A DNA stretch of 64,000 bases, taken from contig JAFQRV010000022.1 of assembly GCA_017409905.1 (NCBI GenBank), positions 4,383 through 68,382 of the forward strand, read 5' to 3'. Position 1 is the first letter of the stretch. The number at the start of each line of letters is the position of its first letter. This document shows, one piece after another, positions 1 to 56,834 of the stretch. This DNA comes from Bacilli bacterium (GTDB lineage Bacteria; Bacillota_I; Bacilli_A; ML615J-28; CAG-313). Position numbers and translations under genes: made by a program. Under the pieces are notes generated by a model. The model searched no databases, was not told the DNA's origin, and saw nothing but the letters and a program-made list of their open reading frames with translations.

Positions 1-3000
1 TTTCACATAATTATAATAGATACCACCTTGTACATATCTAGATGATTGATATCTACTATTTAAATAATCGTAAACTATAATTCCTGATAAACCATCATAA
101 TCATACGTATAAACGAAAGAATAAGTTAATTCTTTATTATCAACATTAGAATTAGTATATGAATATCGGTTCTCACAAATCAATTTATTACCATCGTATT
201 TATATTCTATCAAATAATTTCCATTATTCTTTTGAACACGTTTACTGACTCTTTTGCCTAAACCATCATATTTATAATCAATTATATTAAACTCATTTGA
301 AGTATTATTGCCATCATAAATATATTTAGACAATAAGTTATTATACCCATATTCTAGTTTATTATTATTGATATAGCTTATATTACCAAACTTATCATAA
401 TATATTAAATTTTCATTAATATTCCCACCATTATAGATTTTATATTTACATAAATTATATCTATCATCAGTAGGTTCTTCCACTGGTATATGTTCATATG
501 TTTTGAAAGTAGATCCATTTTTTAATATTGAAACTAAATCTCCACTTTGTGAAGAATAATTATAATTAAATATACTAGTTTCATTTGTTTTTAAATTATC
601 AATTTTTTCTATTGATAAACGATCAACATCATCATAAGTAAAACTATACTCTACTGCATCTAAATCAGCTGTCTCTAAAGTATCGCTTCTTAATAAATTA
701 CTAGTAAAATATTTCCCTGATATTTTATTTTTAGTTATTTTTCCTGTTTCATCAATGTTAATCTCACTTGACAATGTTACTGAATCAGAAGAATAATATA
801 AACTTTTCCTTAAGCATAAATAATTAACTTTAGTAGGAAACATGATTTTTTTACATTCATCATTTGATGAATTACTAAAAGGAGTAGTATACTCAATATT
901 TTTTTCGAAACAAGATGTTGTATCATAGTATATCTTAGTATTATCAACAGAATGCACTTTGAAAAAAACATCCTCGGTATCACCATTTCTAAAGTATTCT
1001 TTTTCTGAACTGTAACCTAAATATCTACCTTTTAAATCATATTTATATTGTTTAGATGCTTGTTCTATTTCTTCATACATTTTATTAATTAAGCCAAGAT
1101 ATCTATAATATTTATTATTAGTGATTCTCGGAGTATAATATCGAGTTCTACCTTGAATAGTATCAGTTACTGTTTCTACCTTATATCTTAATCTTTTTTC
1201 TTCATCTAAAAGTATATCATATTCTACCTCGTTTTGCAAGTAAGAATTTTGTTGATAAATTGTTTCATTTGGCCCTACTAACTTATATGTTGATTTACTA
1301 ATAAAATCATTTTTGGTGTTTACATGAAGAGCATTTATAAATTCATCAAATATAGTAAGCGTATTATTACAATAATTATCAAAATATGTTGTATCATAAA
1401 TAATCTCTTGTGTCTCATTATAAGGAACATTATTCAATGTAAAATAAGCATCCTTATAATCATCGTACATTTGTAATTGTTTTTGTTCATACCCTTCTTC
1501 ATTATACTTTCTATTCAAAACTTTATCTACATTATGTGTTTCGTCATAAAATGTTAAAATTTCATTATTCATCCATTTTATTTTATCAAAGTTATTCCCA
1601 CCATAAGTATCAAAAGAATAAAATCTATCTTCAAGTTCTTTTTCATTTAAATACACTTTATTCAATCTTAAATATTTATCGTATTCAAATTTATATATTT
1701 CATTATCACTTTTCTTATAATACCTTACCAAGCCTTTATTATTACTTAATACCTCTACCTTTTCAATATCTTCTTCATGGGAAATCCCTTTTTCATCAAA
1801 CACTTCTATAACATGAGATATTGCTTTTAAACTATTATCAATCCAATTATAATCATATTTTTTAATGTTGTTTCCACATCTAACTTTATTTAGTTTTAAA
1901 TCTGGAGTATATTCAAATATTGTTTCAATTCCGTTATTATTTATCGAATCGCATACCTCTCGATCAATTGGATCTACATCATAATTATACAATTTTACCG
2001 AAATTGGATTTTCAATTTCATTTTCTTTATATACTAATATTTTTTCGATATTTCCATATAAATCATAATAATTTTCAGTAATAATGTTATATTCATCTTT
2101 TTTAGCTCTAAATGTGCCATCCTCATTATACCAAGTATAAACTAATGATGATATATCATCTGTTAAATCACATTCGGAATTTGTTAATGCCATCATTTTT
2201 TTCTCTTCACAATAATATTGATTTTTTAATACATCATAATCAAATGACATTACTGTGTCTTCTATTAAATATTTGTTGTTTTTGAAGAAAGTAACATTTT
2301 TCATTCTAAAATTAGCTGTTCTATTATTAAAGAAATCCAAATAAATTAAAAAATTTTGATATACTTTAAAATATGTATCTGAAACTTCTATTACTTTTCT
2401 TAAATTACAACAATGTAACTCATATCTAGCTTCATCTAAACATTTGGCCTTGTACATACTTTTATAAGTTTCAATTAAATCATTAATTGTAAAATAGTAA
2501 TCTTTATTAATATTTTTTTCAATAGGACTTGAACCGTTTAAATAACCAAATGTTTCAATATTATCTAGCCTATACATAAACATTTGATTATTTTCATTTA
2601 TACAATTTAACATCAAAAAATTAATACTACTTTTTTTAATTTTAACATCGGCTATTTTATATACATTTTTATCAACAAATTCAATTTCAATATAATTATT
2701 AGTTATACTATTAAAACTGTCTTCGTTCAATACAATGGGAATTTGAACATATTGAATAGTATCTGCTGGACTTGGTTTTATATATACAAATTCTTCACAC
2801 CCATTTATATTCAATAAAACTTTTTTAAAATCACTTATTTCAATATTATTTTTTAACCAGAAGGATACCACAAAGCTTCTATATTTTTCATCATCGTTCA
2901 CATTTAATGTTCCATCCGTCAATAATTTTTTAAATTTATTTACTGTATTAGTTTCAATACATAATTTATCACTTATTTCAATAAATTTATTATCCATTAA

Positions 3001-4137
3001 ATTTGAAACTGACGGTGTCAACGGAAATCCAGTATTTTTAAATTTAGATTTTAAAATTGTATCATATTCTTCTAATACGGAAATCGTTTCTCCTTCATTA
3101 TTTAAATAATAAACATCTATTAATCCATTTTTTTGTTGAACCTTTGTTTTTGAGTTATCATAAGTAATCCTAAATCTTTCATTAATGGTAGATAGATAAT
3201 AATCACTCGCTTTATCATCTTTATATTCACATTTATCATTTACATAAAGTTCTTCATCAATATAATCATCACCAAGATACATGTTAGGTATTTTTTCGAT
3301 ACTTTTCTTTTTCTTTTCAAAAAAACCACTACTGATTTCATGTGCCTTATAATTATTATAAGAAATAGATAAACCATTATTAGTTTGATAATTTATAATT
3401 CCTACCAATTTATTGTCAATATAATTAAAAAGATACTTATCTAATTCATATGTGCCAAACTGATAAGTTATTCCTTTTAAATCTCCATTATCATTATACA
3501 ACAACATATTTCGACTTTCTGATCCATCTAAAACATACTTGATTTTTCCATTATCTCCATAAATAATATTAATTTTATGATATGTTTTTCTTTCATCTTT
3601 TATAGAACTAATTTTATTATTTGAATAATCAAAACTTTTATAAATTTCATGATTAAATTTATTTCTTATTCCTATTAAATAACCTTTTTCATTAAATTCA
3701 AGAATTTCTTTTCCATTGTCAATTTCAAGTTTTTGTGATGAAATTAATAATCTCAAATTCAATCCGCCACTATCATATGAATATCTAATGTCATTATCTC
3801 TTTTATACTCAATAAATCGATGAATATTCCATTCTCCATCAATATAAACATAGTCACCATTTTCAATATCACCATAAGATTCATTATTTTGATATTGAAA
3901 AACATATTGTTGAAAATTAAATTTCCATTTATTATCAATACCTATTATTTTATTTGGAAATAATGTTGAATCAAATAATGAATTATATACTAATGACGTA
4001 TTAATTTGAAAGTTCCCCTTACTAATACTTAATGTTGGAAGATGTATTTTTAATCTTCCGGTTTTAATATTTATAAATGCAGTTAAATCTTTTGCATTCA
4101 TCATTACTTCATTTTGAAATACTTTACTATTATCCAT
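1..4137 (-). CDS. RHS/YD-repeat family protein, first 1379 codons only. The gene runs off the left window edge, so the C-terminal tip or toxin region is not visible.
   Basis: The frame stays open from the ATG at 4137-4135 to base 1, and 4137 is 3 x 1379. That explains its absence from the ORF track and the lack of any other minus-strand ORF in 4 kb. My own translation begins MDNSKVFQNEVMMNAKDL. Canonical YD repeats include IIDYKYDGLGKRVSK and IEYKYDGNKL (nt 180-300), YYDLYGNIEK (nt about 2050-2100), FDYSNNKISSIKD and LLYNDNGDLKGITY (nt about 3450-3650). TGRLKIHLPTLSISKGNFQINTSLVYNS near the N terminus resembles the first strands of Rhs shells. Confidence 0.85.
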   Translation of the reverse strand, partial: MDNSKVFQNEVMMNAKDLTAFINIKTGRLKIHLPTLSISKGNFQINTSLVYNSLFDSTLFPNKIIGIDNKWKFNFQQYVFQYQNNESYGDIENGDYVYIDGEWNIHRFIEYKRDNDIRYSYDSGGLNLRLLISSQKLEIDNGKEILEFNEKGYLIGIRNKFNHEIYKSFDYSNNKISSIKDERKTYHKINIIYGDNGKIKYVLDGSESRNMLLYNDNGDLKGITYQFGTYELDKYLFNYIDNKLVGIINYQTNNGLSISYNNYKAHEISSGFFEKKKKSIEKIPNMYLGDDYIDEELYVNDKCEYKDDKASDYYLSTINERFRITYDNSKTKVQQKNGLIDVYYLNNEGETISVLEEYDTILKSKFKNTGFPLTPSVSNLMDNKFIEISDKLCIETNTVNKFKKLLTDGTLNVNDDEKYRSFVVSFWLKNNIEISDFKKVLLNINGCEEFVYIKPSPADTIQYVQIPIVLNEDSFNSITNNYIEIEFVDKNVYKIADVKIKKSSINFLMLNCINENNQMFMYRLDNIETFGYLNGSSPIEKNINKDYYFTINDLIETYKSMYKAKCLDEARYELHCCNLRKVIEVSDTYFKVYQNFLIYLDFFNNRTANFRMKNVTFFKNNKYLIEDTVMSFDYDVLKNQYYCEEKKMMALTNSECDLTDDISSLVYTWYNEDGTFRAKKDEYNIITENYYDLYGNIEKILVYKENEIENPISVKLYNYDVDPIDREVCDSINNNGIETIFEYTPDLKLNKVRCGNNIKKYDYNWIDNSLKAISHVIEVFDEKGISHEEDIEKVEVLSNNKGLVRYYKKSDNEIYKFEYDKYLRLNKVYLNEKELEDRFYSFDTYGGNNFDKIKWMNNEILTFYDETHNVDKVLNRKYNEEGYEQKQLQMYDDYKDAYFTLNNVPYNETQEIIYDTTYFDNYCNNTLTIFDEFINALHVNTKNDFISKSTYKLVGPNETIYQQNSYLQNEVEYDILLDEEKRLRYKVETVTDTIQGRTRYYTPRITNNKYYRYLGLINKMYEEIEQASKQYKYDLKGRYLGYSSEKEYFRNGDTEDVFFKVHSVDNTKIYYDTTSCFEKNIEYTTPFSNSSNDECKKIMFPTKVNYLCLRKSLYYSSDSVTLSSEINIDETGKITKNKISGKYFTSNLLRSDTLETADLDAVEYSFTYDDVDRLSIEKIDNLKTNETSIFNYNYSSQSGDLVSILKNGSTFKTYEHIPVEEPTDDRYNLCKYKIYNGGNINENLIYYDKFGNISYINNNKLEYGYNNLLSKYIYDGNNTSNEFNIIDYKYDGLGKRVSKRVQKNNGNYLIEYKYDGNKLICENRYSYTNSNVDNKELTYSFVYTYDYDGLSGIIVYDYLNSRYQSSRYVQGGIYYNYVK

Positions 4138-5494
4138 TTTTCTTTTTTCTATCCTTTCTAAAAGTTTCTAAAACGGCCTCACTGTCTACAATTAATCTTG
4201 TTGAAAACTTTCCATCACATAAAAGAATTTTATTACCCCTTCCAGATATCAAAACTACATCTAATGGTTTAGCATCATAAATTGCTTTTTCTATGGCTTT
4301 TTTTCTATCAAAAATAATTTCTGATCCTATTTCGTTATCTAAATACATATCTAATTCTTTACAAATATCTGATAGTTCTTCTGCTCCACTATCACTTTCT
4401 GTGATATAAACATAATCTGCATATTTTTTTAATAAATCTGCCACATATTTTCTACTTTCATGAGTTTGCTCAATATATTTTTCAGTAAAAAAGCGTTTTT
4501 CCCAAGAATAATGACCAAAACCTAATGTTCCCATTACAACATTAATAGCTTTTATATGGCCTTGCTTTTTATATTGATATAATTCAAGCAAAATTGATGA
4601 AAGCTGACTATCAACAATAATATATCTATCTTTATACTTATAAAGTTCTGCTCTTCCAGGAATTCTAATGTTTTTTATTAATTCTTGAAATTTATTAAGA
4701 TTAAATAACCCTAATACATTTAGTGTTGTTATAACCCCTAGTACGTTTAAAGCATTATAATTCATAATTAAATTAGTATGTAATGAATACTCCCTACCAT
4801 TTAATAAAAAAGTCATATCTAACCCTTTTAGTGAATGTACTAAATCAACTAACAAACAATTTGCTGTAGTTTCATTAACATTTTTTACTTCTAAGATATG
4901 TCTTGTTGAAAAAACATATTTTTCGCACTCATTACATGATAATAGTGTTTCCAACAAATCTTTTGAATAATCTTGTAGTCCATATATACATTTTGTTTTT
5001 TTACTTGTATTTTCAAAAAATCTTTTTTTCAGTGAAACATACTCTTCTTCAGTATAGTTTTCTAAATTATGTTTGGGATTTAAATTGGTTAATAATTTTA
5101 TATCAAATTCAAAATTATCTAATAAACCTTTTTGAATTGTACTTTCATTTACTTCTAATATTAAAAAGTCCGGATCATATGCCTCTACTTCTTCAATAAT
5201 ATTTAATAAATCCTCTTCTTTATAAACCGCTACTTCGCATGCATTCTTATTAGAAATTCTACTTGCAGGTGAATCTATTTTTATACTGCTATATAAAATA
5301 CTTTTATAGCCTAATAATTTTAAATATTCATGAAGTAAAAAAGCAGTTGTAGATTTCCCTTTACTTCCTGTAATCCCAATAATTTTTGTTTTAAACGATT
5401 CTTTTCTTTTTTTATTTTGATATTCTCTCTTTATTTGTCTTGTCGCGACTAGTCCTTTTTTTAAATAAAACTCTTTTAACTTATCTAACTTCAT
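4130..5494 (-). CDS. Mur ligase family protein: a divergent homologue that lacks the N-terminal UDP-sugar-binding domain
   Basis: 454 aa. The P-loop IIGITGSKGKSTTA sits at about residue 40. Also present are LEVNEST, TNLNPKHN, PGRAELY, and a C-terminal ISGRGNK in place of GKGHE. Its stop overlaps the RHS start (ATGGATAA). Confidence 0.7.
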   Translation of the reverse strand: MKLDKLKEFYLKKGLVATRQIKREYQNKKRKESFKTKIIGITGSKGKSTTAFLLHEYLKLLGYKSILYSSIKIDSPASRISNKNACEVAVYKEEDLLNIIEEVEAYDPDFLILEVNESTIQKGLLDNFEFDIKLLTNLNPKHNLENYTEEEYVSLKKRFFENTSKKTKCIYGLQDYSKDLLETLLSCNECEKYVFSTRHILEVKNVNETTANCLLVDLVHSLKGLDMTFLLNGREYSLHTNLIMNYNALNVLGVITTLNVLGLFNLNKFQELIKNIRIPGRAELYKYKDRYIIVDSQLSSILLELYQYKKQGHIKAINVVMGTLGFGHYSWEKRFFTEKYIEQTHESRKYVADLLKKYADYVYITESDSGAEELSDICKELDMYLDNEIGSEIIFDRKKAIEKAIYDAKPLDVVLISGRGNKILLCDGKFSTRLIVDSEAVLETFRKDRKKKNG

Positions 5495-5503
5495 ATTTTT
5501 CTC

Positions 5504-6010
5504 CTAATCATCAGAAGATACTGAATCTGCTAATACTTCAATTTCAACGTCAATAGATCCTACTAACACTTCTGAATTATTTTCAAATAGTTTAATCGTG
5601 TGTGTATATATTTGTTCAGTCAATGAACTTAAACTTACACCAGTTTCAATACTTAATTGTATTTCAATCTTTTCCCCATTGTTTACTACTGTATTTAATA
5701 CAAAAGGACTATCACAAGTTGCTTCTGTTGTTACAGTAAATCTTCTATCAGTATCAACTATAAATTTATGAGTAGAATTAATTCCTTGCCCCTTTATAAC
5801 TTTTAAATTATCTTCTTCAATATAGTATCCTTGGCACAATAATGATAAATTTTTAGCATCTAGTGGGGTTCCTTGTTCATATACTTCTCCTTCACTTCTA
5901 GATAAGCTAACCTTCATTGTGCTTATTTCTCCCACAAAATCTCCTGTCATACTTAATACATTTAATGTAAACACATTTGGATTTTCAACATTTCTATTTT
6001 TAAATTTCAT
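5504..6010 (-). CDS. Hypothetical soluble protein, with a possible phage tail-fibre-like N-terminal motif
   Basis: 168 aa with no TM segment and a predicted beta-rich composition. The N-terminal ENPNVFTL...SRSEGEVYEQGTPLDAKNL resembles, from memory, the NPNR..L...EGTPLNAENL motif of Firmicute phage tail-fibre proteins. It sits 4 nt after the holin-like gene and 9 nt before the Mur-ligase-like gene. Confidence 0.5.
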   Translation of the reverse strand: MKFKNRNVENPNVFTLNVLSMTGDFVGEISTMKVSLSRSEGEVYEQGTPLDAKNLSLLCQGYYIEEDNLKVIKGQGINSTHKFIVDTDRRFTVTTEATCDSPFVLNTVVNNGEKIEIQLSIETGVSLSSLTEQIYTHTIKLFENNSEVLVGSIDVEIEVLADSVSSDD

Positions 6011-6014
6011 TTTT

Positions 6015-6266
6015 TTATTCTCCTTTTTTAATTTGTTTTATTATTTGATTTGTTCCAGTGGAACTTAATCCACTAATCATACCTATTATTATTTTTTCTA
6101 ATAAGTTATCTGTTTCTATTAAATAAATCCCTAATAACCCACCAATAATCATAACTATAATAGGTATGTATTTATAAAAATTTGGTTTTTCTTTAAAAAC
6201 CCTTTTATATAGTTCACCAACCATATAACTAACAACTAAGATTATTTCTATTCCTTTGTATTCCAC
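6015..6266 (-). CDS. Phage-type holin-like small membrane protein (resembles the Hol44 / holin superfamily V pattern)
   Basis: 83 aa with two to three hydrophobic helices. The layout VGELYKR...YIPIIVMIIGGLLGIY...IIGMISGLSSTGTNQIIKQIKK matches the remembered holin pattern (..vE.iK....iP.v...lG..lg....G...GLsAsG.y...K). A 2-nt gap separates it from the upstream gene. Confidence 0.6.
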   Translation of the reverse strand: MEYKGIEIILVVSYMVGELYKRVFKEKPNFYKYIPIIVMIIGGLLGIYLIETDNLLEKIIIGMISGLSSTGTNQIIKQIKKGE

Positions 6267-6268
6267 CT

Positions 6269-6544
6269 TTAACCTCCTTCAATAATCTTGTTTATAATAT
6301 CGATATTACCTTCAACTTTATTGATTCTTTCTAGTAAGCTTTTATAACATTCATCAACTTTATATAAATTCTTTTCTACTCTATCAACGCACTCTTTTAT
6401 ATAACTAATATCTGTTATAATAATGCCTTCCTTTTTGCCACTTTTTATATCTTCTTTGTGCCTGTTGTTTTTTAAGGCCATATATGCAAAATAAATACTA
6501 GAAATTGTTCCTAATATCGATATAATTGTCATCGCAATAGTCAT
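6269..6544 (-). CDS. Single-pass membrane protein with a C-terminal coiled coil (architecture like BhlA/UviB/XhlA)
   Basis: 91 aa. An N-terminal TM helix (MTIISILGTISSIYFAYMAL) is followed by a charged heptad-like region (VDRVEKNLYKVDECYKSLLERINKVEGNIDIINKI). It has a strong RBS, GAGGAGG, 8 nt upstream, and is the first gene of the operon. Confidence 0.55.
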   Translation of the reverse strand: MTIAMTIISILGTISSIYFAYMALKNNRHKEDIKSGKKEGIIITDISYIKECVDRVEKNLYKVDECYKSLLERINKVEGNIDIINKIIEGG

Positions 6545-6564
6545 TTAATCACCTCCTCAACTAT

Positions 6565-6594
6565 ATAACCAATGCAATTTTTAAAAAATACAAC
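6565..6594 (-). promoter_or_regulatory. Promoter-like motif, copy B (GTTGTA-N18-GGTTAT), upstream of the holin/Mur-ligase/RHS operon
   Basis: The minus strand reads GTTGTATTTTTTAAAAATTGCATTGGTTAT and ends 20 nt before the ATG at 6544. It is nearly identical to copy A at 7319-7349. The -10-like hexamer is not TATAAT. Confidence 0.5.
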
Positions 6595-6618
6595 CTAAAA
6601 TAAAAAAAGAAAAGTTTT

Positions 6619-7260
6619 TTAAACTTTTCCTTTTTTATACTTTTCTTTTATTTTTTTGAGTTTTCTAGAAATAGCTTGTTGAGATATACCTAATATATCG
6701 CCTACTTCTTTTTGTGTTAAAATTCTTTCTTTATCAACAAATAATTTTAAAAATGCTTTTTCTTCATCATCTAAATATTTTATATTATATGTATTATTAC
6801 TTGATAGTTTTATTATTTCTAAATATTTTTCATAGATGGCTTTTTCTTTTTCCTGTTTTTGATAAAAAGATATCCTAATTGATTTAAATCTTTTATTAAT
6901 ATAATTAATAAACTGATTTTCATTACAAAATAAAATAAACTCATTAATAAATAAATCTTTATTATTTACTCTTAACAAATCATCTTTATACTTTTCAATA
7001 AAAGCCAATAAATATTTATTTGTAATATTTTGATTTTCTATTTCTTGTTGATTTATCTTTATATTATAATTAATCTTAAATGTAATTAGTACGTTATATA
7101 ATCCCAATAATAATTCTTGATATATTTCTTCTTGATAACTGATGGGTATTTTTTTAATATTGTAATAAATTAAGTTTTTTAATTTTTCTAAAATTTTTTC
7201 AAAAAATATATCATCCTTAGTATTTTGATAGTTAATAACTAGTTTAATTAACGAGTTCAT
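6619..7260 (-). CDS. Sigma-70 family RNA polymerase sigma factor of the small two-domain type (comparable to the ECF or TcdR/UviA-like groups)
   Basis: 213 aa. The region-2-like N terminus is DDIFFEKILEKLKNLIYYNIKK...QEEIYQELLLGLYNVLITF. The C-terminal region-4 HTH is LTQKEVGDILGISQQAISRKLKKIKEKY. An N/K/I-rich linker joins them. Confidence 0.65.
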   Translation of the reverse strand: MNSLIKLVINYQNTKDDIFFEKILEKLKNLIYYNIKKIPISYQEEIYQELLLGLYNVLITFKINYNIKINQQEIENQNITNKYLLAFIEKYKDDLLRVNNKDLFINEFILFCNENQFINYINKRFKSIRISFYQKQEKEKAIYEKYLEIIKLSSNNTYNIKYLDDEEKAFLKLFVDKERILTQKEVGDILGISQQAISRKLKKIKEKYKKGKV

Positions 7261-7318
7261 TATTACCCCTCTTTCGAGGAGTCCTAATGAAAGTTAATTA
7301 ATTTAACTCCTCATAGGA

Positions 7319-7349
7319 ATAACCAAATACAATATATAAAAAATACAAC
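7319..7349 (-). promoter_or_regulatory. Promoter-like motif, copy A (GTTGTA-N19-GGTTAT), upstream of the sigma factor gene
   Basis: The minus strand reads GTTGTATTTTTTATATATTGTATTTGGTTAT, 58 nt upstream of the ATG at 7260. It shares 26 of 30 aligned positions with copy B. Confidence 0.5.
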
Positions 7350-7439
7350 TTCAAATAAATTTTTTTCATATCCCATTTCCCCATTTTTTATTTATACTTT
7401 ATTTTGACAAAAAAAGAAAAAAAGTGCAAATAATATACA

Positions 7440-8057
7440 TTATTTACACTTTACTTTTTCTAAATAAACTTTAACAGGTTCATAAGATACTCTGTGATGC
7501 TTTGTTATACCAAGTTGATATAAAGCAGCTTTATGTTTTTTAGTAGGATATCCTTTATTCTTTTCCCATTCATAACCTGGAAATTCTTTAGATAATTCAA
7601 TCATTAAATCATCTCTGATTACTTTTGCTATTATCGAAGCACAACCAATAGTATAACTTCTAATATCACCTTTAATAATATCCATATATGGAATATCAGT
7701 ATGAATCTTCATAGCATCAGTTAAAATATAATCAGGTTTGACAGATAGTTTTTTAATTGCTTCTTCCATTGCTAGTCTTGAAGCTTCTAAAATATTGATT
7801 TCATCTATTTTATTATTATCAATTGAAACTACTGCATAACTTACTGCTTCACTTAAAATTTTAGGAAATAATTCTCTTCTTTTTTTGTCTGTTAATTTTT
7901 TAGAATCATTTACGCCGGGGATTGCACTATCTTTTTTCATAATAATAGCACAAGCATATACAGGACCTGCAATACAACCTCTTCCTACTTCATCAGTCCC
8001 CGCAATATATTCATAACCCTCACTATAAATCTTTTTTTCAAATTCAAAATTACTCAT
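7440..8057 (-). CDS. rnhB: Ribonuclease HII
   Basis: 205 aa with the catalytic motif GTDEVGRGCIAGPV. It overlaps rbgA by 8 nt, which fits the conserved rbgA-rnhB pairing in Firmicutes. Confidence 0.9.
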   Translation of the reverse strand: MSNFEFEKKIYSEGYEYIAGTDEVGRGCIAGPVYACAIIMKKDSAIPGVNDSKKLTDKKRRELFPKILSEAVSYAVVSIDNNKIDEINILEASRLAMEEAIKKLSVKPDYILTDAMKIHTDIPYMDIIKGDIRSYTIGCASIIAKVIRDDLMIELSKEFPGYEWEKNKGYPTKKHKAALYQLGITKHHRVSYEPVKVYLEKVKCK

Positions 8058-8898
8058 TTATATCCTCTTGAATTCTATCTAATGTGATATTACCTAGTGA
8101 ACCATTTCTTAAATCATTAAGTATTAACATACATACCCTATTTATATCAATCTCTTTATTTGCATAAAGTTTTTTCTCTCTTCCAAGATGAGTAATATAG
8201 TCATCAATATATTCTTCTGATACACCATATCTTTTCTCTAGTACTCCTGGATATAACTCATGAAGTAGTTTAACACCATAATCTAAAATATCTTCTATTC
8301 TTAATATATCATCTTTAATTGCACCTGTTAATGCAAGATTAAATCCCACAATTGGATTTTCAAACTTTGGCCATAAAACCCCTGGAGTATCCAGTAATTC
8401 TAAATCTTGATTTAATTTGATCCATTGTTGAGCTTTAGTTACCCCTGGTTTATCACCAACAAAAGCAACTTTTTTACCAGCCAAATTGTTGATTAAAGTT
8501 GATTTACCAACATTAGGAATTCCTACAACCATTGCTTTAATTGCTCTAGGCTTTAGACCTTTTAAAGCATCTTTTTTTCTTTTTTCTTCCAATGCTTTAG
8601 TAATGGTTCTCATTACTATTTTTTTAGTTTGATTATCTTTTGAATTAACAGCAATTACAAAATTACCTTTTTGTTCGTAATGTTTACACCATTTTTTAGT
8701 TTCCACATTATCAGCTTTATCAGCTTTTGTTAATATATATAAAACTTGCTTATTTTGAAACTTTTTAGCGACCTCTGGATTAAATGATGATTCTGGTACC
8801 CTAGCATCAAGTAGTACAATAACTAAATCAACAAATTTAATTTTTTCATCCATTTCCCTAAAGGCTTTGGCCATATGCCCTGGATACCATTGAACCAT
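8050..8898 (-). CDS. rbgA: Ribosome biogenesis GTPase A (YlqF/RbgA)
   Basis: 282 aa. It has the N-terminal signature QWYPGHMAKA and a circularly permuted GTPase order: TKADK (G4) comes before GIPNVGKST (G1). Confidence 0.9.
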   Translation of the reverse strand: MVQWYPGHMAKAFREMDEKIKFVDLVIVLLDARVPESSFNPEVAKKFQNKQVLYILTKADKADNVETKKWCKHYEQKGNFVIAVNSKDNQTKKIVMRTITKALEEKRKKDALKGLKPRAIKAMVVGIPNVGKSTLINNLAGKKVAFVGDKPGVTKAQQWIKLNQDLELLDTPGVLWPKFENPIVGFNLALTGAIKDDILRIEDILDYGVKLLHELYPGVLEKRYGVSEEYIDDYITHLGREKKLYANKEIDINRVCMLILNDLRNGSLGNITLDRIQEDINE

Positions 8899-8907
8899 AA
8901 TTTCCTC

Positions 8908-32689: not shown

Positions 32690-33241
32690 CTACTTATTCT
32701 TATAATGTTCTAATAATTCTTTAAATCTAGCATAGTGAACTATTTCTCTTTGTCTTAAGAAAAGTAAAGGTTTTAATACTTCTGGATCAGTTGTTAAATC
32801 AATTAAATTTTCATAAACTGCTCTTGCTTTTTCTTCAGCTGCCATATCTTCATGAATATTAGCAAAAACATCACCAACAGAAGAAATATAAGCTGTAGTA
32901 AAAGGTAATCCAGAAGCATTTTGTGGATAAAGATCTATACCATGTTCTGTATAATAATCTTCCATTCCTGCTTCTTTAAAGTCTTCATATGTTGCACCTT
33001 TAGTAAGAGCTACCATCATTTCACAAAGCATTTCAACATGTGATAATTCTTCTGTTCCAATGTCTTTTAATAATGTTTTACCATAATCATCAGGCATTGT
33101 ATAGCTTTGATTCAAATATCTTAAAGCTGCACCAAGTTCACCTTGTGGTCCACCATATTGACTCATAATTACTTTAGCTAATTTTAAATCTCTTTTTTTA
33201 ATATTGATTGGAAAAGCCAATCTTTTTTCATACATCCACAT
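32690..33241 (-). CDS. cotJC: Spore coat protein CotJC (manganese-catalase family)
   Basis: 183 aa with MWMYEKRLAFPINIKK...QYGGPQGELGAALRYLNQSYTMP and ELSHVEM. A TAATG overlap joins it to the upstream cotJB-like gene. Confidence 0.9.
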   Translation of the reverse strand: MWMYEKRLAFPINIKKRDLKLAKVIMSQYGGPQGELGAALRYLNQSYTMPDDYGKTLLKDIGTEELSHVEMLCEMMVALTKGATYEDFKEAGMEDYYTEHGIDLYPQNASGLPFTTAYISSVGDVFANIHEDMAAEEKARAVYENLIDLTTDPEVLKPLLFLRQREIVHYARFKELLEHYKNK

Positions 33242-33633
33242 TAGTTATACACCCCATTTGGCCAATTGTTTAGCCATTTCCATGGAGTAGTATTTAATGA
33301 ATCAGATGTTAAAGTTAAAGCATTGTACTTCTTCTCATATTCATTTACTAAATTACAATAACGCATTTTAGCTTCAACAAATTTTTCCAAAACATTTGCA
33401 TCATTTGGATGAGTATCTAAATATAAAGCTAAATCATTCATAATAAAAGCATACATACTAATTTCATAAAGTAATTTATCTTTTTCATTAGTAATTGTTA
33501 CTTCTTTAATTTGATAATTTTTATAAGGCTTATATAAGTCTTCAAACATATTACCTCTTAAAAAACCTAAATTATCACTTGTTAGATTATTATCTTTAAC
33601 TAAGTAATTTTTAAAGTAATTTATATGATTCAT
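33241..33633 (-). CDS. cotJB: CotJB-like spore coat protein with an N-terminal CotJA-like segment
   Basis: 130 aa. The CotJB core is LLYEISMYAFIMNDLALYLDTHPND...EYEKKYNALT. The N-terminal LGFLRGNMFEDLYKPYKNY resembles the CotJA GTxFPxLxxPY motif. Confidence 0.75.
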   Translation of the reverse strand: MNHINYFKNYLVKDNNLTSDNLGFLRGNMFEDLYKPYKNYQIKEVTITNEKDKLLYEISMYAFIMNDLALYLDTHPNDANVLEKFVEAKMRYCNLVNEYEKKYNALTLTSDSLNTTPWKWLNNWPNGVYN

Positions 33634-33671: not shown

Positions 33672-34577
33672 TTAAGAATAGGCAATTGAATTGTTTGTAA
33701 TAATTTTTACTTCGGTTTTTAAATCAATTTGGTAATTTATCAAAACACTTATTTTAACATAATAGATTAATGCTAACATTTCATTAAATGTCGCATTCTT
33801 TAAATTAACAAAAAAATTAGTATGCTTAAACGAGATTGCAGCATCATTAATTCTAAACCCTCTTAAGCCTAATTTATCAATTAACTCCCAAGCTTGATAA
33901 TTAATTCCATTAATAAACATACTTCCAGCAGTATACGTATTAACTGGTTGGGTATTTCTTTTAATTTCTTGATATTTATTTAAAAGTTCTAAACTATTTT
34001 CTTTTTTATTTTGAAAATCTAATAATACTTTTAGAATAATTAAGTGATTTTTGCTAAAACAAGTTTTACGATAACCACATTTTAAATCTTTTAAAAAAAT
34101 TATTTTCCCCTCTTGATTTAAACAAATAACTCCTCTTACAATATGATCAATACTTTTTTTAAAACAAGAAGCATTCATATATACTAATCCACCAATAGTA
34201 CCTGGTATTAATACTAAAGGTAGAGCATCAATATATCCATCTTCTATAATCTTTTTCCCTAATACTTGTGGTTTTAAACCACTATCTACTAAATATACGT
34301 GTTCATTTAATTTTAAGATTTTATTTAATCTTCTTAAACTAATAAATACAATATCTAAATACTCATCATCAATTAATAAATTACTTCCATTACCAATAAT
34401 AAAGTATCGATACTTTTCTTTATTTAAATATTTAATAAGTTTTATTAAAGAATGACTACTATTAACTTCAACATAATAAGAACAAATACCACCTATTTTA
34501 AAAGTGGTATGTTTTTTTATGCTATAGTTTTTATAACAAATTCCTATATTTTCTTTATCAATATAATCTTTCAACAT
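33672..34577 (-). CDS. murB: UDP-N-acetylenolpyruvoylglucosamine reductase
   Basis: 301 aa with the FAD-binding domain motifs TFKIGGICSYYVEV and IIGNGSNLLI. It follows murG. Confidence 0.85.
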   Translation of the reverse strand: MLKDYIDKENIGICYKNYSIKKHTTFKIGGICSYYVEVNSSHSLIKLIKYLNKEKYRYFIIGNGSNLLIDDEYLDIVFISLRRLNKILKLNEHVYLVDSGLKPQVLGKKIIEDGYIDALPLVLIPGTIGGLVYMNASCFKKSIDHIVRGVICLNQEGKIIFLKDLKCGYRKTCFSKNHLIILKVLLDFQNKKENSLELLNKYQEIKRNTQPVNTYTAGSMFINGINYQAWELIDKLGLRGFRINDAAISFKHTNFFVNLKNATFNEMLALIYYVKISVLINYQIDLKTEVKIITNNSIAYS

Positions 34578-35556
34578 TATTAATCTCCTTAATAAAACTT
34601 AAACTGGCATTAGTATATTTATTTATAATTTTTATATTTTCTAATTTCTTTAAGGCTTTTATTAAATTGTCTACATTTAAATCTTTTTCTTCAATGACAA
34701 TACCATTTTCTTGTATTGCGTTAAAATACTGATGATTATTACTAACATTAGGAGATGGAATAATGATTGGAAGAATATTTAAACTTTTTATTTCGGAAAG
34801 AGTTGTTGCTCCTGCTCTAGTAATTATATATTTAGTATCTTTTAAATAATTTGATAAATTATCAATAAAAGGTACCACTTTTAAATGTTCTTTTTCTTTT
34901 ACTTTTTTGCTGATATCATCATAATACTTCTTACCAGTTATAAAAGTAATATCAAAGTTATTACTGTATTCATGATTTAAAAAATCAATCATTACTTGAT
35001 TTAAAAAAGATGCTCCATTACTACCACCTACTATTACTAACTTTTTATCATCTTTTCTGATATCTAATCTTTCTAATTCCACTAGATTAGGATTTCCAAC
35101 TATTACACTATTTTTATAATTTTTCTTTAACTTATAATTTAATAATAACTTTTGACATCTAATCTTACAAATTTTATTACCTAATCCCATTACCGCATTT
35201 TGTTCATGAATAATAGTTTTTATTTTCATTCTTTGAGCTTCTAAGATTCCCACACTTCCTAAAAAAGATCCAAAGCCAATAACAATATTTGGTCGATATT
35301 TTAAATAAATTTGATTAAATTCTTTTTTTAATTTAAAAAATAATTTAATCTCTTCCATTCGATTTAAACTATTAATATCAATAAAGATGTTTTTATCAAA
35401 ACGACTTTTCTTTAAGACTTCTAAATCCTTTTGTTTAGATATTGTTATATATATAATTTTTACCATTGGATACTTATTTCGAATTTTTCTTCCAACCGCA
35501 ATCCCTGGAATAACATGACCTAAAGTACTTCCACCTAAAATAATTACTGTTTTCAT
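34558..35556 (-). CDS. murG: Undecaprenyl-PP-MurNAc-pentapeptide N-acetylglucosamine transferase
   Basis: 332 aa with the N-terminal G-loop ILGGSTLGHVIPGIAV and a GT28 layout. It sits between ftsW and murB. Confidence 0.8.
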   Translation of the reverse strand: MKTVIILGGSTLGHVIPGIAVGRKIRNKYPMVKIIYITISKQKDLEVLKKSRFDKNIFIDINSLNRMEEIKLFFKLKKEFNQIYLKYRPNIVIGFGSFLGSVGILEAQRMKIKTIIHEQNAVMGLGNKICKIRCQKLLLNYKLKKNYKNSVIVGNPNLVELERLDIRKDDKKLVIVGGSNGASFLNQVMIDFLNHEYSNNFDITFITGKKYYDDISKKVKEKEHLKVVPFIDNLSNYLKDTKYIITRAGATTLSEIKSLNILPIIIPSPNVSNNHQYFNAIQENGIVIEEKDLNVDNLIKALKKLENIKIINKYTNASLSFIKEINNVERLY

Positions 35557-36638
35557 ATTACCTCCATATACTTACTAATATTTAGTAATATACCCAGTCC
35601 TATTAAAGTTATTGTTAAACTACTTCCTCCATAACTAACTAAAGGAAGAGTAATGCCTGTAATTGGTAATAACCCAATAACTACACAAATATTAATAATA
35701 GCTTGAACAAAAATCAAAATACCGATACCAATACTAGTAAATGATAAATATAAATTATCTACTCTTGTACTAATTTTAATGGCTTTAAATAAAATTATAA
35801 AATATAAAATAACTAAAAACAATGCACCAATTAATCCTAATTCTTCACAAATGATTGCGAAAATAAAATCATTTTGTGGTTCAGGTAAAAAGAAATGTTT
35901 TTGAATACTTTTATTAAATCCTAAACCAAACAATCCTGATGGTGCTACAGCTAGTATTGATTGAATCCCTTGAAATCCACTTCCTAATGGATCACTCCAT
36001 GGATTTAAAAAAGCAAATATTCTTTCCATTCTATATGGTGCAGATATTATTAAACCAACAATTCCAATTATACCAATACCCATTAATCCAAAGAAATACT
36101 TTAATGGTACACCAGATATAAATAACAATAAAATACTACTAACTACTATTACTAATCCTGTACCGAAGTCTGGTTGTAACATAATTAATCCAAAAATCAA
36201 AATAATAATACTAAGCATTAAGACAAAATTTTTAAACTTTTTTAAATCTTCATAATATTTAGCTAAATAATTACTAATTAATAAAATTAAAGCAATCTTC
36301 ATAAACTCAGATGGTTGAATACTAAAAGTTCCAAGTCCAATCCAAGATTTTGCACCACCTCTTGTTGATCCAACAAAAAGCACTAAGATTAATAGTATTA
36401 GACTGATTAAAAAAATAATTTTTGTGTTGTTTTGTATTTTAAAAATATCAACCTTTATTGTTAATAACATTAATATTATCCCAATAAATGCAAATAGTAA
36501 TTGTCTTTTAAAATAATAAAAAGAATCATTGTATTTATAACTAGCAACTATATTACTAGCAGAAAAAACCATTAATAATCCAAATAATACTAATATTATT
36601 ATTACTATTAATAAACTATAATCAATCTTTCTTTTCAT
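35553..36638 (-). CDS. ftsW: FtsW/RodA/SpoVE (SEDS) family peptidoglycan polymerase
   Basis: 361 aa with 10 TM helices and the SEDS motifs IQPSEFMKIAL and PEPQNDFIFA. Its dcw-type context with murG favours FtsW or SpoVE. Confidence 0.8.
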   Translation of the reverse strand: MKRKIDYSLLIVIIILVLFGLLMVFSASNIVASYKYNDSFYYFKRQLLFAFIGIILMLLTIKVDIFKIQNNTKIIFLISLILLILVLFVGSTRGGAKSWIGLGTFSIQPSEFMKIALILLISNYLAKYYEDLKKFKNFVLMLSIIILIFGLIMLQPDFGTGLVIVVSSILLLFISGVPLKYFFGLMGIGIIGIVGLIISAPYRMERIFAFLNPWSDPLGSGFQGIQSILAVAPSGLFGLGFNKSIQKHFFLPEPQNDFIFAIICEELGLIGALFLVILYFIILFKAIKISTRVDNLYLSFTSIGIGILIFVQAIINICVVIGLLPITGITLPLVSYGGSSLTITLIGLGILLNISKYMEVI

Positions 36639-45718: not shown

Positions 45719-46649
45719 ATTTCTTCTTTTTATCTTTATTTCTCTTATCACTAATAATCTTCATTTCTTTTTCAGTTATTAGTGTACAATTATTTTCTTT
45801 TGCCCAATCAACACAACCTTTTAAAACTAATTTTAAGAATGGTCTTGGAACTTTCACAATTGTTAACAAAGCATCATCAGTAAATTTAACTACATCATCA
45901 GCACGATCTGCCGCATATCTAATAGAAGTTAAATCAACTTCTTTATCAGGTATTCCTTCATAATCAGCTTTTTTATATCCAGAACACCAGAAATTTTTTG
46001 AATCTCTATATCCCCAGTTAGTTGGTAGTGGACAGAAATTCTTCTTTGTAACCCCATTAATAATTGCATCATAGTATTTATCTTTCATTAAAATATGATC
46101 AATTTTTAAAATGAAATGCGCACCATATTTTGATGTAATACCATTAAAATTATGATATGGTCCATTATATTCTTCTTGAACTTGATCGTTTTCAGCACCA
46201 TCTAATTCTTTTACCCAAGTACATTCGAATACTTGTAAAGCCTCACTTATTACTTTGGGATATTGATTATCTGGATCATTAGAACAAGATAAACCTTCTT
46301 CTAAATGAAACTTAAATTCTTTCATTTTTTCTTCAGGTGTATCACCAGGGAATCCTAAACGAACATGTTCTTTAAAGATTTTTTTAGAATATGGTAAAAA
46401 GTTAATAGTACATTTACCTGTTCTTAAAATATGTTTTGCGGTATTAGAATTATTTCTTACCTCTAAAACCATCGCATAATAATCTTTACCAGCAATATAA
46501 TATGGAAAACATAAAGAATATGCACCAAAACTAGTGTTTCCCTTTTCATCAAGGGTTCCAATTAAAGTAAGTGGCATTGGAAAAAACGCTGATGATTGAT
46601 AAAAATTATCAACTATTCTTAAATCCTTAAAACTACTCATATAATTCAT
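45717..46649 (-). CDS. Flavin-reductase-like (FMN-binding split-barrel) domain protein with a C-terminal extension
   Basis: 310 aa. FFPMPLTLIGTLDEKGNTSFGAYSL...GKCTINFLP resembles the Flavin_Reduct domain. It overlaps the upstream Wzy_C-like gene by 17 nt. Confidence 0.45.
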   Translation of the reverse strand: MNYMSSFKDLRIVDNFYQSSAFFPMPLTLIGTLDEKGNTSFGAYSLCFPYYIAGKDYYAMVLEVRNNSNTAKHILRTGKCTINFLPYSKKIFKEHVRLGFPGDTPEEKMKEFKFHLEEGLSCSNDPDNQYPKVISEALQVFECTWVKELDGAENDQVQEEYNGPYHNFNGITSKYGAHFILKIDHILMKDKYYDAIINGVTKKNFCPLPTNWGYRDSKNFWCSGYKKADYEGIPDKEVDLTSIRYAADRADDVVKFTDDALLTIVKVPRPFLKLVLKGCVDWAKENNCTLITEKEMKIISDKRNKDKKKK

Positions 46650-48063
46650 CTTCTTTCTTAAAACTTATTTTTTTATATGGTAAACATTCAAAAGCAACAA
46701 ATAAAACTCCATAATGTAAACCAGGTCCAAAATTAAACAATTGACAATCTAATAAACTATTTAGTAAGATTGCACAAATTGAGATTGTAATAAATATTTT
46801 CTCAAGAGTAATCTTCTTAAATAATAAAATAATTGTTTCAATTCTGTGATAACCATAACATAACAATCCAATAATACCAGTACTAGCTAAAAATTGAACA
46901 ATAGTATTATGGTATCTAGGAGCAAGAAAAGCACTTTTATCAAAGTATAATACTGGTGCATAATCAAAGTCATAAAAGCCATTACCTATAAGAGGAGATT
47001 CTTTAAATGATTTTAAACCATTCTTATAAATATTAAATCTTCCACTATCATTAAGCCCTTTATCAGCTAAATCACCAAATACTTCCATCAAGTAATCATT
47101 ACAAGATAAGATAATAATTACAGTAATTATTGTTAATAAAAGTGTTGTAATAACATTATACATTCTTTCTTTTTTCTTAGAGAATATTATTGTAAATAGT
47201 GTACCTATAAAACTTAAAAGTATTCCAACTAAAATAGAATTTCTGCTTTGTGTTAAAATTACAAATCCGACAATAAGACCTGCTAATATATTAAATATCC
47301 AACCATTCTTTTTAGTTGCGGCTAAATAATATACTACACCAATACATGTACAAATTACACCACCTACATTGTTGTATACTCCCCATCCAGTATAAATTTC
47401 TCTTCTATGAAATTCAAGTGCTTCCCAATCAAACATTATATACGAATATAAAGTTTCAACTCCCACACCAAGACCAATAAATAAGAAAACATAAGCTAAA
47501 TAGTCTAATTTCATTTTATCCCAATCAACAGTATAAAATAAATAGAAATAACATACACACAAAGTAAACCCAACTAATAAACCATACAATACAGTTCTTA
47601 AACTATAATCATCAGTAAAAACTCCGCCAAGCATCATACCAAGAGTAAGTAGTACAAAACCAATAAGTAATTTTGGCTTACGATTAATCTTACGATATTT
47701 TAAATCCATAATTAATCTTAAAGTTAAACCGACCAATAGAATTAAACCAATAATAATCATATTAATTAAAAAAGTTTTACTTGTTAATATTGATTCTTTA
47801 TTGTAAATTGGAGTTTCATTTTTAGAAACAGTCATATATCCAGTACATATTAATGGAATTGTTGGAAACATGTCATCACAAAAAAACATTATACAAAGTC
47901 CTAACACTGTATAAATATAATATGTTAATATTTCCAATCCAAAAAGGAAAGAAACTAACATTAATACTACGGATAATACAATAAAATAAATAGATTTTAA
48001 AAACTTGTTAAACAAATTAATTATTTTATTATTACTAAAGTTAGGTATCCAATAATTTAACAT
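46633..48063 (-). CDS. O-antigen ligase/polymerase-like (Wzy_C domain) polytopic membrane protein
   Basis: 476 aa with about 12 TM helices, the loop motif LTQSRNSILVGILL, and a periplasmic-type loop typical of the Wzy_C/O-antigen-ligase family. Confidence 0.55.
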   Translation of the reverse strand: MLNYWIPNFSNNKIINLFNKFLKSIYFIVLSVVLMLVSFLFGLEILTYYIYTVLGLCIMFFCDDMFPTIPLICTGYMTVSKNETPIYNKESILTSKTFLINMIIIGLILLVGLTLRLIMDLKYRKINRKPKLLIGFVLLTLGMMLGGVFTDDYSLRTVLYGLLVGFTLCVCYFYLFYTVDWDKMKLDYLAYVFLFIGLGVGVETLYSYIMFDWEALEFHRREIYTGWGVYNNVGGVICTCIGVVYYLAATKKNGWIFNILAGLIVGFVILTQSRNSILVGILLSFIGTLFTIIFSKKKERMYNVITTLLLTIITVIIILSCNDYLMEVFGDLADKGLNDSGRFNIYKNGLKSFKESPLIGNGFYDFDYAPVLYFDKSAFLAPRYHNTIVQFLASTGIIGLLCYGYHRIETIILLFKKITLEKIFITISICAILLNSLLDCQLFNFGPGLHYGVLFVAFECLPYKKISFKKEDELYE

Positions 48064-56802: not shown

Positions 56803-56834
56803 TTCTCTAATTCCTTTCATTTGAAATTCACATT

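Follow-up and report, generated by a model that had tools for sequence, protein, structure and literature searches.

A candidate RHS toxin cassette with a MurE-like ligase, an aspartate-tailed protein and a phage-type holin in low-GC gut Bacilli and Mollicutes

The 64-kb stretch of a Bacilli bacterium genome analyzed here (contig JAFQRV010000022.1 of assembly GCA_017409905.1; hereafter the window) carries at its left edge a minus-strand gene cassette that ends in a giant RHS protein gene, preceded by genes for a MurE-like ligase, a 168-residue protein with a C-terminal aspartate (p168), a phage-type holin, a 91-residue membrane protein and a sigma-like factor. Among the cassettes that we compared, the gene for the Asp-tailed protein, the ligase gene and the RHS gene make up the invariant core, and their recurrence makes it very probable that the locus is a cassette dedicated to an RHS toxin, in which the accessory genes are obligatory. 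The model that we favor, by a modest degree, is sigma-controlled, holin-dependent release of a polymorphic RHS toxin, with the ligase acting on the C-terminal Asp of p168. Coordinates below are those of the window; labels such as L001 denote mapped cassette contigs, L001 being the extension of the window's own contig.

Four look-ups of gene neighbors and a scan of one genome per species (43 loci) together gave 53 loci, which were reduced to 39 distinct cassettes by removal of near-duplicates. The ligases of these 39 share about 35–55% identity. A giant open reading frame (ORF) lies directly 3′ of the ligase gene, within a few bases of its stop codon, in 36 of the 37 cassettes where this could be tested, with 33 matching the RHS profile, and the remaining cassette is interrupted by an insertion. 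On the other side, a protein-coding gene stands directly 5′ of the ligase gene in all 39. Where at least 2.5 kb of upstream sequence is available (31 cassettes), 20 cassettes have a holin of the PF16079 type, 15 the gene for the 91-residue protein and 11 a sigma-like gene; four further cassettes (L040, L041, L043 and L049) encode a protein with a single transmembrane (TM) segment in the holin position. The six-gene order described in the initial annotation of this DNA is therefore conserved in part: the Asp-tailed protein, ligase and RHS genes are invariant in relatives, and the sigma-like and 91-residue genes are optional (11 and 15 of 31, respectively).

The surroundings of the cassette differ from genome to genome, from aspS-lspA-mutS2 (L003) to hydrogenase genes (L006) and suf genes (Acholeplasma oculi), and several genomes carry two or three cassettes. 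A gene order that recurs in differing neighborhoods points to a functional unit rather than a decayed prophage beside a stray gene. The same order in dozens of genomes, in varied neighborhoods and with no phage structural genes, also agrees with the earlier proposal that the holin genes are not an ordinary prophage lysis cassette. The carriers are low-guanine-plus-cytosine (GC) gut Bacilli, Erysipelotrichales and Mollicutes, and the cassette is widespread. Two cassettes from bins labeled 'Prevotella sp.' (L033) and 'Bacteroidales' (L014) are very similar to those of an Anaeroplasma metagenome-assembled genome (MAG; L028) and of Bacilli MAGs, which looks like mis-binning rather than transfer to Bacteroidota.

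In the window, ORF translation reproduced six minus-strand ORFs running head to tail at the positions first annotated, together with the gaps of 74, 2, 4 and 9 nucleotides and the 8-nucleotide overlap between them. The earlier impression that the locus is AT-rich also holds, at 23.5% GC against 27.5% elsewhere in the window (all 99 size-matched windows have a higher GC content), and the sigma-like gene has a GC content of 17.4%. No terminator-like site was found from the promoter-like motif that precedes the packed block (6571–6594) to the RHS gene, and the block is presumably co-transcribed. A generic sigma-70 promoter scan was uninformative in DNA this AT-rich (80 found versus 73 expected). 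In agreement with the initial annotation, genes for phage structural proteins, integrase or endolysin did not turn up in the annotated parts of the window and contig (with 41–64 kb only sampled).

The p168 gene (5504–6010, minus strand) encodes a soluble, all-β protein that matches no Pfam, NCBIfam or PHROG family, the PHROG search having been made with 15 family members. In the AlphaFold model (pLDDT 78), a conserved N-terminal domain of ~60 residues is followed by a C-terminal immunoglobulin (Ig)-like sandwich and a flexible tail that ends ...SVSSDD-COOH; the fold matches generic Ig, BACON and Big2 domains only. The family evolves fast, with zero to several Ig-type repeats inserted after the N-terminal domain and lengths from 160 to 460 residues. 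The initial annotation had listed this product simply as a 168-residue soluble protein, and the structure prediction that it proposed gives an Ig-like protein and not a hydrolase. The Ig-like fold rules out a cryptic endolysin. We also considered a phage tail-fiber N terminus, on the basis of a sequence motif, and rejected it for want of PHROG support across the 15 members and given the generic Ig-like folds.

Among the 39 cassettes, the gene directly 5′ of the ligase ends in Asp in 36, in Glu in two and in Ala in one, against a background for ORF ends in the same loci of 4.3% Asp and 9.8% Glu. The terminal Asp persists in distant cassettes in which the N-terminal part of the upstream protein escapes the p168 profile. 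A profile search of 1.84 billion cluster representatives recovered 272 members of the p168 family; among the 124 listed representatives of at least 150 residues, 96 end in Asp and seven in Glu (103 of 124), with the tail consensus S-x-x-P-x-D, and six long family members, read by eye, end as p168 does. The Shine-Dalgarno sequence of the ligase gene sits in a gap of 16–22 nucleotides in most loci, so in most loci the terminal Asp is not an artefact of the ribosome-binding site, and we discarded that explanation for them. Some cassettes carry tandem p168-family genes or a separate copy of the N-terminal domain of 82–90 residues (L019, L024, L035, L038 and L009:20419-21349). Of the two paralogues in L019, the one next to the ligase has the Asp end and the one upstream of it ends in Asn; in L024 it is the upstream copy that has the Asp end, with Ala at the end of the copy beside the ligase. 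L009 also contains a second, partial cassette ~9 kb downstream of the first.

The neighboring ligase gene (4130–5494, minus strand) belongs to the Mur-ligase family, as first annotated (Mur_ligase_M, 1e-18; Mur_ligase_C, 5.5e-7), and retains the middle and C-terminal domains only. Its match to the murE model TIGR01085 (6e-39) begins at profile position 82, matches to MurE models start at ~82–110, and its closest relatives of solved structure are MurE enzymes, matched over domains 2–3 only, from structure residue 91–103. The UDP-binding N-terminal domain is replaced by ~35 residues ahead of the P-loop. Across 12 family members, the motifs GITGSxGKS, EVNES, LTNLNPKHN, PGRxE and SGRGN are invariant or nearly so, and SDSG occupies the position of the diaminopimelate-binding DNPR motif. 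With its P-loop and family motifs kept, the ligase is probably active.

More than 300 relatives of ~450 residues are found at ~50% identity, all in uncultured 'Bacilli', Acholeplasmatales and similar bins, and one variant alone is present on 161 contigs. The ligase is also present in the Mollicute Acholeplasma oculi, with several copies in Acholeplasma, and in a MAG labeled Anaeroplasma bactoclasticum. Mollicutes have no peptidoglycan. The context is not that of a housekeeping mur gene, which would be a single copy in the dcw cluster of a walled organism: the ligase gene stands beside an RHS gene, genomes carry up to three copies, and in the window the murB, murG and ftsW genes of the host are found at a different place. 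The initial annotation had suggested a peptidoglycan enzyme in place of a hydrolase. This role is unlikely because the UDP-MurNAc-binding domain is missing and the ligase is kept in wall-less Acholeplasma. Mur ligases convert a carboxylate to an acyl phosphate to which an amine is then added, and MurE acts on a D-Glu end that offers two carboxylates. A terminal Asp or Glu likewise has two carboxylates, which makes the p168 tail a candidate substrate; ligation at this terminus is a tentative proposal, to which we give somewhat less than an even chance. In the A. oculi cassette, a second gene of the Mur-ligase fold (L049:7709-8743; 344 residues, matched by Mur_ligase_M only, at 1.8e-6) lies 5′ of the holin-like gene and hints at more than one ligation step.

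The RHS gene occupies positions 1–4137 of the minus strand, where its start overlaps the ligase stop by 8 nucleotides, and the window encodes the first 1379 of its 1696 residues. These 1379 residues give no Pfam or NCBIfam RHS match even at E = 10, and a sequence search of the PDB gave a single marginal Rhs match (E = 0.62). YD-type motifs are nevertheless in excess (six observed versus 0.44 expected, with a maximum of three in 1000 shuffles). An exact-match look-up of the ligase led to a 93-kb metagenome contig (L001) in which the ORF is complete, and there TIGR03696 (Rhs_assc_core) matches residues 1400–1488 of the 1696-residue protein above cut-off (5e-14), outside the window. The usual DPxGL motif of the core, as read from the sequence, is degenerate (NNPIAIKYD). 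Homologues linked by iterated profile match RHS_repeat (1.2e-7 in L049, faintly in others), and one homologous cassette has an RHS protein with a PT-HINT domain. The RHS identity put forward in the initial annotation thus draws no support from domain matches within the window and is carried by the YD motif excess, the TIGR03696 match in the full-length protein and the RHS_repeat and PT-HINT domains of homologues.

The last ~200 residues of the protein end in a hydrophobic glycine-zipper segment, and the C-terminal toxin is probably a membrane-damaging glycine-zipper domain. Immediately after the RHS gene in L001 comes a putative immunity gene for a 145-residue membrane protein, followed by a 255-residue orphan fragment with a remnant of the core (TIGR03696, 1e-10) and a second 145-residue membrane protein. 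The region from the RHS core through the predicted toxin and immunity gene to this orphan toxin/immunity pair (L001:15555-19063) lies beyond base 1 of the window, with the putative immunity gene, orphan RHS C-terminal module and second membrane protein at L001:16462-19063, past its left edge. The leftward extension suggested by the initial annotation has in this way recovered the C-terminal toxin region and a putative immunity gene, and the layout past the edge is, by gene order and domain content, that of a standard RHS polymorphic toxin locus. Past the orphan module, L001 continues with three small paralogous ORFs (135, 95 and 100 residues) and then the type I methylase gene hsdM. One homologous cassette encodes a SUKH-3 immunity protein, and another has a Laminin_G_3 insert. 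In L037, the RHS gene is split at 2889–4500 by an insertion that holds two ORFs of 233 and 283 residues; read by eye, the first starts like an insertion-sequence transposase with a helix-turn-helix.

Hydropathy and domain searches agree with the earlier statement that the RHS protein has neither a Sec signal nor an LXG/WXG domain. Its N terminus lacks a hydrophobic segment (highest 17-residue Kyte-Doolittle mean 0.62), and no trafficking domain from Pfam or NCBIfam, no PAAR, LXG/WXG or signal peptide was found there. The conserved N-terminal sequence MDxSKINQ(T/S)EL...VNLYTGRLLYE leads directly into the shell motif, the VNLYTGRLLYE-type segment being presumably the opening of RHS shells (a faint DUF6531 match is seen in one homologue). 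The flanks examined likewise showed no Sec signal and no LXG/WXG, PAAR or type VII secretion system (T7SS) genes. An RHS protein without a trafficking domain would therefore depend on the upstream genes for export and accessory functions. Lys5 of the N terminus was considered as an amine acceptor and set aside, since it is conserved but replaced by Arg in some homologues.

The holin gene (6015–6266, minus strand) encodes 83 residues of the Hol44/superfamily V type and bears out the phage-type holin of the initial annotation, with matches to PF16079 (Phage_holin_5_2; 5e-11, above cut-off) and to phrog_1129 'holin' (7e-15); Pfam reported no other holin family for it. Twenty-seven columns are invariant when the holins of the cassettes are aligned. 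In the A. oculi cassette (L049) the PF16079 holin is missing, and its position is taken by a 141-residue protein that has one TM segment, at the N terminus, and matches Holin_LLH weakly (PF09682, 1.3e-3); single-TM proteins of 116–126 residues take the holin position in L040, L041 and L043; of these four proteins, only that of L049 was domain-scanned. An unrelated holin-like family in the same position suggests that holin function rather than ancestry has been kept, and this replacement argues, as the best comparative support available, for release through the holin. Six cassettes that lack the sigma and 91-residue genes (L006, L013, L017, L021, L022 and L048, at about 6900–8900) have a conserved protein of 615–638 residues with no Pfam match directly 5′ of the holin gene, and L009 has a pair of 370 and 88 residues in that position; these may be alternative regulators or partners.

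The gene for the 91-residue protein (6269–6544, minus strand) precedes the holin gene in the window and in all 15 of the 31 cassettes that have it. The protein has one hydrophobic segment (residues 1–25), consistent with the single-pass membrane and coiled-coil protein first annotated, and a strongly conserved DIGYIKACVDRVEKNL core. It matches phrog_1863 (3.5e-11), a family of unknown function, and a tblastn search of phage genomes found no match. Its terminal Gly-Gly codons (GGAGGA, within 6269–6280) double as the Shine-Dalgarno sequence of the holin gene, which starts 2 nucleotides later. Gly-Gly ends are common among its homologues, including those of L003, L030, L032, L035 and L038; the overlap with the holin's Shine-Dalgarno sequence rules out a ubiquitin-like tail.

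At the head of the cassette, the sigma-like gene (6619–7260, minus strand), an optional part, encodes 213 residues. Sigma70_r4 matches at 5.6e-6 and the ECF-type model TIGR02937 aligns to residues 20–210 at 3.6e-7, below its curated cut-off. Eight of nine family members match Sigma70_r4, none has a Pfam match to region 2, and the family's matches to sigma factors in the PDB are weak (8x6g_H, 3e-3; the SigW N terminus, 0.013). Of the two sigma domains previously assigned, region 4 is thus supported and region 2 has no Pfam match. A single-sequence AlphaFold model (pLDDT 52) was too poor to use. A search of plasmid sequences gave no match and one of phages a single marginal match (E = 0.6), and no alignment beyond the helix-turn-helix could be made to an approximate TcdR sequence; no relation of the protein to TcdR or UviA could thus be demonstrated. 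A search against anti-phage defense families gave weak, non-specific matches for the sigma-like and 91-residue proteins and none for the other five proteins.

A promoter-like motif (GTTGTA-N13-GTATT, then TGGTTAT) lies 5′ of the sigma-like gene at 7326–7349 on the minus strand, and a second copy lies 5′ of the 91-residue gene, at the start of the packed block (6571–6594, minus strand). The 24-nucleotide element has exactly two matches in the 64 kb against none expected, a count for a pattern derived from the same two sites. A bipartite form, GTTGT[TA]-N14-16-[GA]C[AG]TGTTA, stands 5′ of the sigma genes in L012, L016, L020, L023, L027, L030 and L032, 5′ of the 91-residue gene in sigma-containing loci and 5′ of the holin gene in five loci. 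It was not found in cassettes without a sigma gene, and the sequence around it has diverged between loci. Its tie to the presence of the sigma gene fits a dedicated, positively autoregulated factor, and the conserved motif lends support to dedicated sigma control of the cassette.

On the side of the sigma gene in L001 the neighbors of the cassette are rnhB, ylqF, lepB and ftsK, with no phage structural genes among them. Host murB, murG and ftsW/rodA, together with the neighboring cotJB and a cotJC of the manganese-catalase type, lie at 33672–36638 (minus strand) and about 32690–33600, in the 33–37 kb region. The window's host is a walled, peptidoglycan-making bacterium, unlike some other carriers of the cassette, and is probably spore-forming. 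Farther along the window, an ORF of 2876 residues (48190–56820, minus strand) matched no Pfam family at E ≤ 0.001, had no exact counterpart in the gene-position collection and may encode a giant surface protein; it is flanked by a Wzy_C O-antigen-ligase-like gene (46633–48063) and a Peptidase_S58 gene (56954–58000).

In the model that we propose, the sigma-like factor, where present, would turn on its own gene and the operon through GTTGTW-N14-16-GCATGTTA promoters, and the RHS cocoon would fold in the cytoplasm around its toxin. Using ATP, the ligase would activate a carboxylate of the terminal Asp or Glu of p168 and join it to an amine, for which the RHS protein, an envelope component and a free amino acid are candidates; this step would yield the toxin's adaptor or targeting component in its mature form. 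The holin and its 91-residue partner would then open the membrane, and the folded complex would escape, probably killing the producer, as with TcdE or type 10 secretion. Wall-less hosts would need nothing beyond the holin; in walled hosts, the host's own autolysins, set off when the membrane potential is lost, could plausibly do the rest. Neighbors that lack the immunity protein would be killed, in the case of the window by a putative glycine-zipper membrane toxin, so that the cassette would serve an antibacterial role. The parts differ in probability. Holin-dependent release seems to us slightly favored on the comparative evidence. That a MurE-derived C-terminal protein ligase joins the p168 Asp covalently to an amine of the RHS toxin or the envelope, and with the holin makes up a new ATP-dependent ligation step and export route, is a speculative extension that we consider rather doubtful.

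Several observations weigh against this model. Passage through the wall in walled hosts is its weakest point: in the window's host, which forms peptidoglycan and spores, a protein of ~190 kDa must cross the wall although no wall hydrolase is encoded in the cassette. About a quarter of the cassettes have no recognizable holin nearby, which suggests that the holin may be unnecessary or supplied from another locus. The conserved Lys5 of the RHS N terminus, considered as the amine partner, gives way to Arg in some homologues. In the most distant loci the ribosome-binding site of the ligase gene overlaps the codons for Gly-Asp or Gly-Glu, and the terminal residue there could be an artefact. The terminal Asp could also serve for docking and not for ligation. 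The sigma identity consists of region 4 and weak full-length matches, and the gene maps and iterated profiles are built on our own ORF calls.

Four other explanations were considered. The locus could have come about by chance, a stray mur gene and an RHS element having landed beside a decayed prophage lysis cassette, as the phage families of the holin and 91-residue protein and the AT-richness of the locus relative to its surroundings might suggest. Synteny contradicts this: the order is repeated in 39 distinct cassettes in unrelated neighborhoods with no phage structural genes, and the genes are packed with ends that overlap or nearly touch, which leaves chance a most improbable account. Alternatively, and close to the suggestion of the initial annotation, the ligase could be a surrogate endolysin that draws off peptidoglycan precursors or assembles them wrongly; the wall would then give way locally after the holin has acted, and the RHS protein would escape. 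The enzyme is indeed most similar to MurE and fills the slot where a lysis cassette would carry its endolysin, the window's host has a wall, and some phages bring about lysis with small proteins that block precursor synthesis. We nonetheless regard a wall-weakening ligase as improbable: the UDP-MurNAc-binding domain is missing, the ligase–RHS pair is kept in multiple copies in wall-less Acholeplasma, and the ligase is linked more tightly to the RHS and Asp-tailed genes than to the holin.

The remaining two explanations each keep the cassette and reassign one of its parts. In the first, the Asp tail is a non-covalent docking motif, bound for example, together with a metal ion, by a lectin-like RHS domain, and the MurE-like protein is a scaffold or chaperone or modifies another target, be it the RHS protein or a small molecule. 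Peptide-binding domains of RTX adhesins are reported to recognize a free C-terminal Asp, lectin-like Laminin_G_3 inserts occur in RHS homologues, and a MurE-like protein may have a structural role alone, PAP11 of the plastid RNA polymerase being an example (from PDB names). The invariant Mur-ligase motifs argue instead for catalysis, and coincidence hardly explains why a carboxylate–amine ligase is encoded beside a protein in which the only strictly conserved property of the tail is a dicarboxylic residue at its end, so that docking appears unlikely. In the second, the holin module would not be the export route but a regulator, an abortive or suicide switch or a module serving other cargo; the exit of the RHS protein would then follow an unrecognized path, or the protein would act only after ordinary cell death. 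Roughly a quarter of the cassettes have no detectable holin, and no wall hydrolase is present, as such a role would allow. Holins of different families in the same position of divergent cassettes, the promoter motif shared by the sigma, 91-residue and holin genes, and the absence of Sec signals and of LXG/WXG, PAAR and T7SS genes from the flanks examined speak for release through the holin and make a module unconnected with export quite unlikely.

How Gram-positive and wall-less bacteria export signal-less RHS toxins is poorly understood, and the cassette offers a concrete candidate route in organisms common in human and animal guts. A cultured carrier exists in Acholeplasma oculi ATCC 27350, with its cassette at about 53.8–57.5 kb of NZ_FUZK01000002.1, and the sigma-linked promoter motif is a direct handle for expression studies. 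If the ligase does act on a protein terminus, it would be a Mur-ligase-fold enzyme working on a protein, which would be new biochemistry, and would give a function to a Mur-ligase gene in a bacterium without a cell wall. No Mur-ligase–RHS or Mur-ligase–holin cassette is described in the portions of the full-text literature searched, including those of a 2012 survey of polymorphic toxin trafficking, nor do they mention a Mur ligase or a holin in company with toxins of this kind, and the cassette is apparently undescribed.

Several components have known counterparts. MurE of peptidoglycan synthesis shares the P-loop and motifs of the ligase and differs from it in domain architecture and genomic context. 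Other enzymes of the Mur fold act on substrates that are not nucleotides: MurT of MurT/GatD, the M domain of cyanophycin synthetase, FolC and CapB/PgsB have the Mur-ligase middle domain, with or without the C-terminal domain, lack the UDP-binding domain and activate carboxylates with ATP. The cassette ligase differs from these in being closest to MurE by sequence and in its proposed substrate, the terminal Asp of a folded protein, for which RimK and PafA, as C-terminal protein ligases, provide a functional analogy. By its sequence features the cargo qualifies as a genuine RHS polymorphic toxin: with WapA of Bacillus, the type VI secretion system Rhs effectors and TcB-TcC it shares the YD shell, a core ahead of a variable toxin, an immunity gene directly downstream and orphan modules, and among the family features examined only the N-terminal trafficking domain is lacking. 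It differs from those toxins in having no Sec, PAAR/VgrG-binding, TcA-binding or LXG domain and in its pairing with a MurE-like ligase and an Asp-tailed protein.

Two release systems come closest to the cassette as a whole. The Tc toxin of Yersinia entomophaga leaves the cell by type 10 secretion, a holin–endolysin release (PMC10847048). With this system and that of the Serratia chitinase, the cassette shares a large leaderless toxin beside a phage-derived holin and a release that likely costs the producer its life. The cassette has no endolysin or spanin, carries the Ig-like protein and the ligase in that position and resides in Gram-positive or wall-less hosts; searches for a hydrolase family came up empty in all six proteins, as did inspection of the flanking genes in four cassettes. 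The second system is that of the pathogenicity locus (PaLoc) type, in which TcdR and TcdE accompany TcdA/B, or UviA and UviB accompany BCN5; TcdE-dependent toxin secretion is documented (PMC10516005, PMC12150058). A small sigma-like regulator, an apparently autoregulated promoter, a holin and a leaderless large toxin are common to these loci and the cassette. The cassette differs in its holin, which belongs to PF16079 (the Hol44 family) and is not of the TcdE type, in its RHS cargo and in having the sigma gene in about a third of cassettes, and its sigma-like protein shows no detectable sequence relation to TcdR, as compared with an approximate TcdR sequence. The parallel drawn in the initial annotation with PaLoc and UviA/UviB therefore stands for the layout of sigma-like gene, holin and leaderless toxin and does not demonstrably extend to ancestry, the holin being of a different family and the sigma-like protein showing no demonstrable relation to TcdR or UviA. 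As we propose it, the cassette works like a type 10 or PaLoc-type release system yet is a member of neither.

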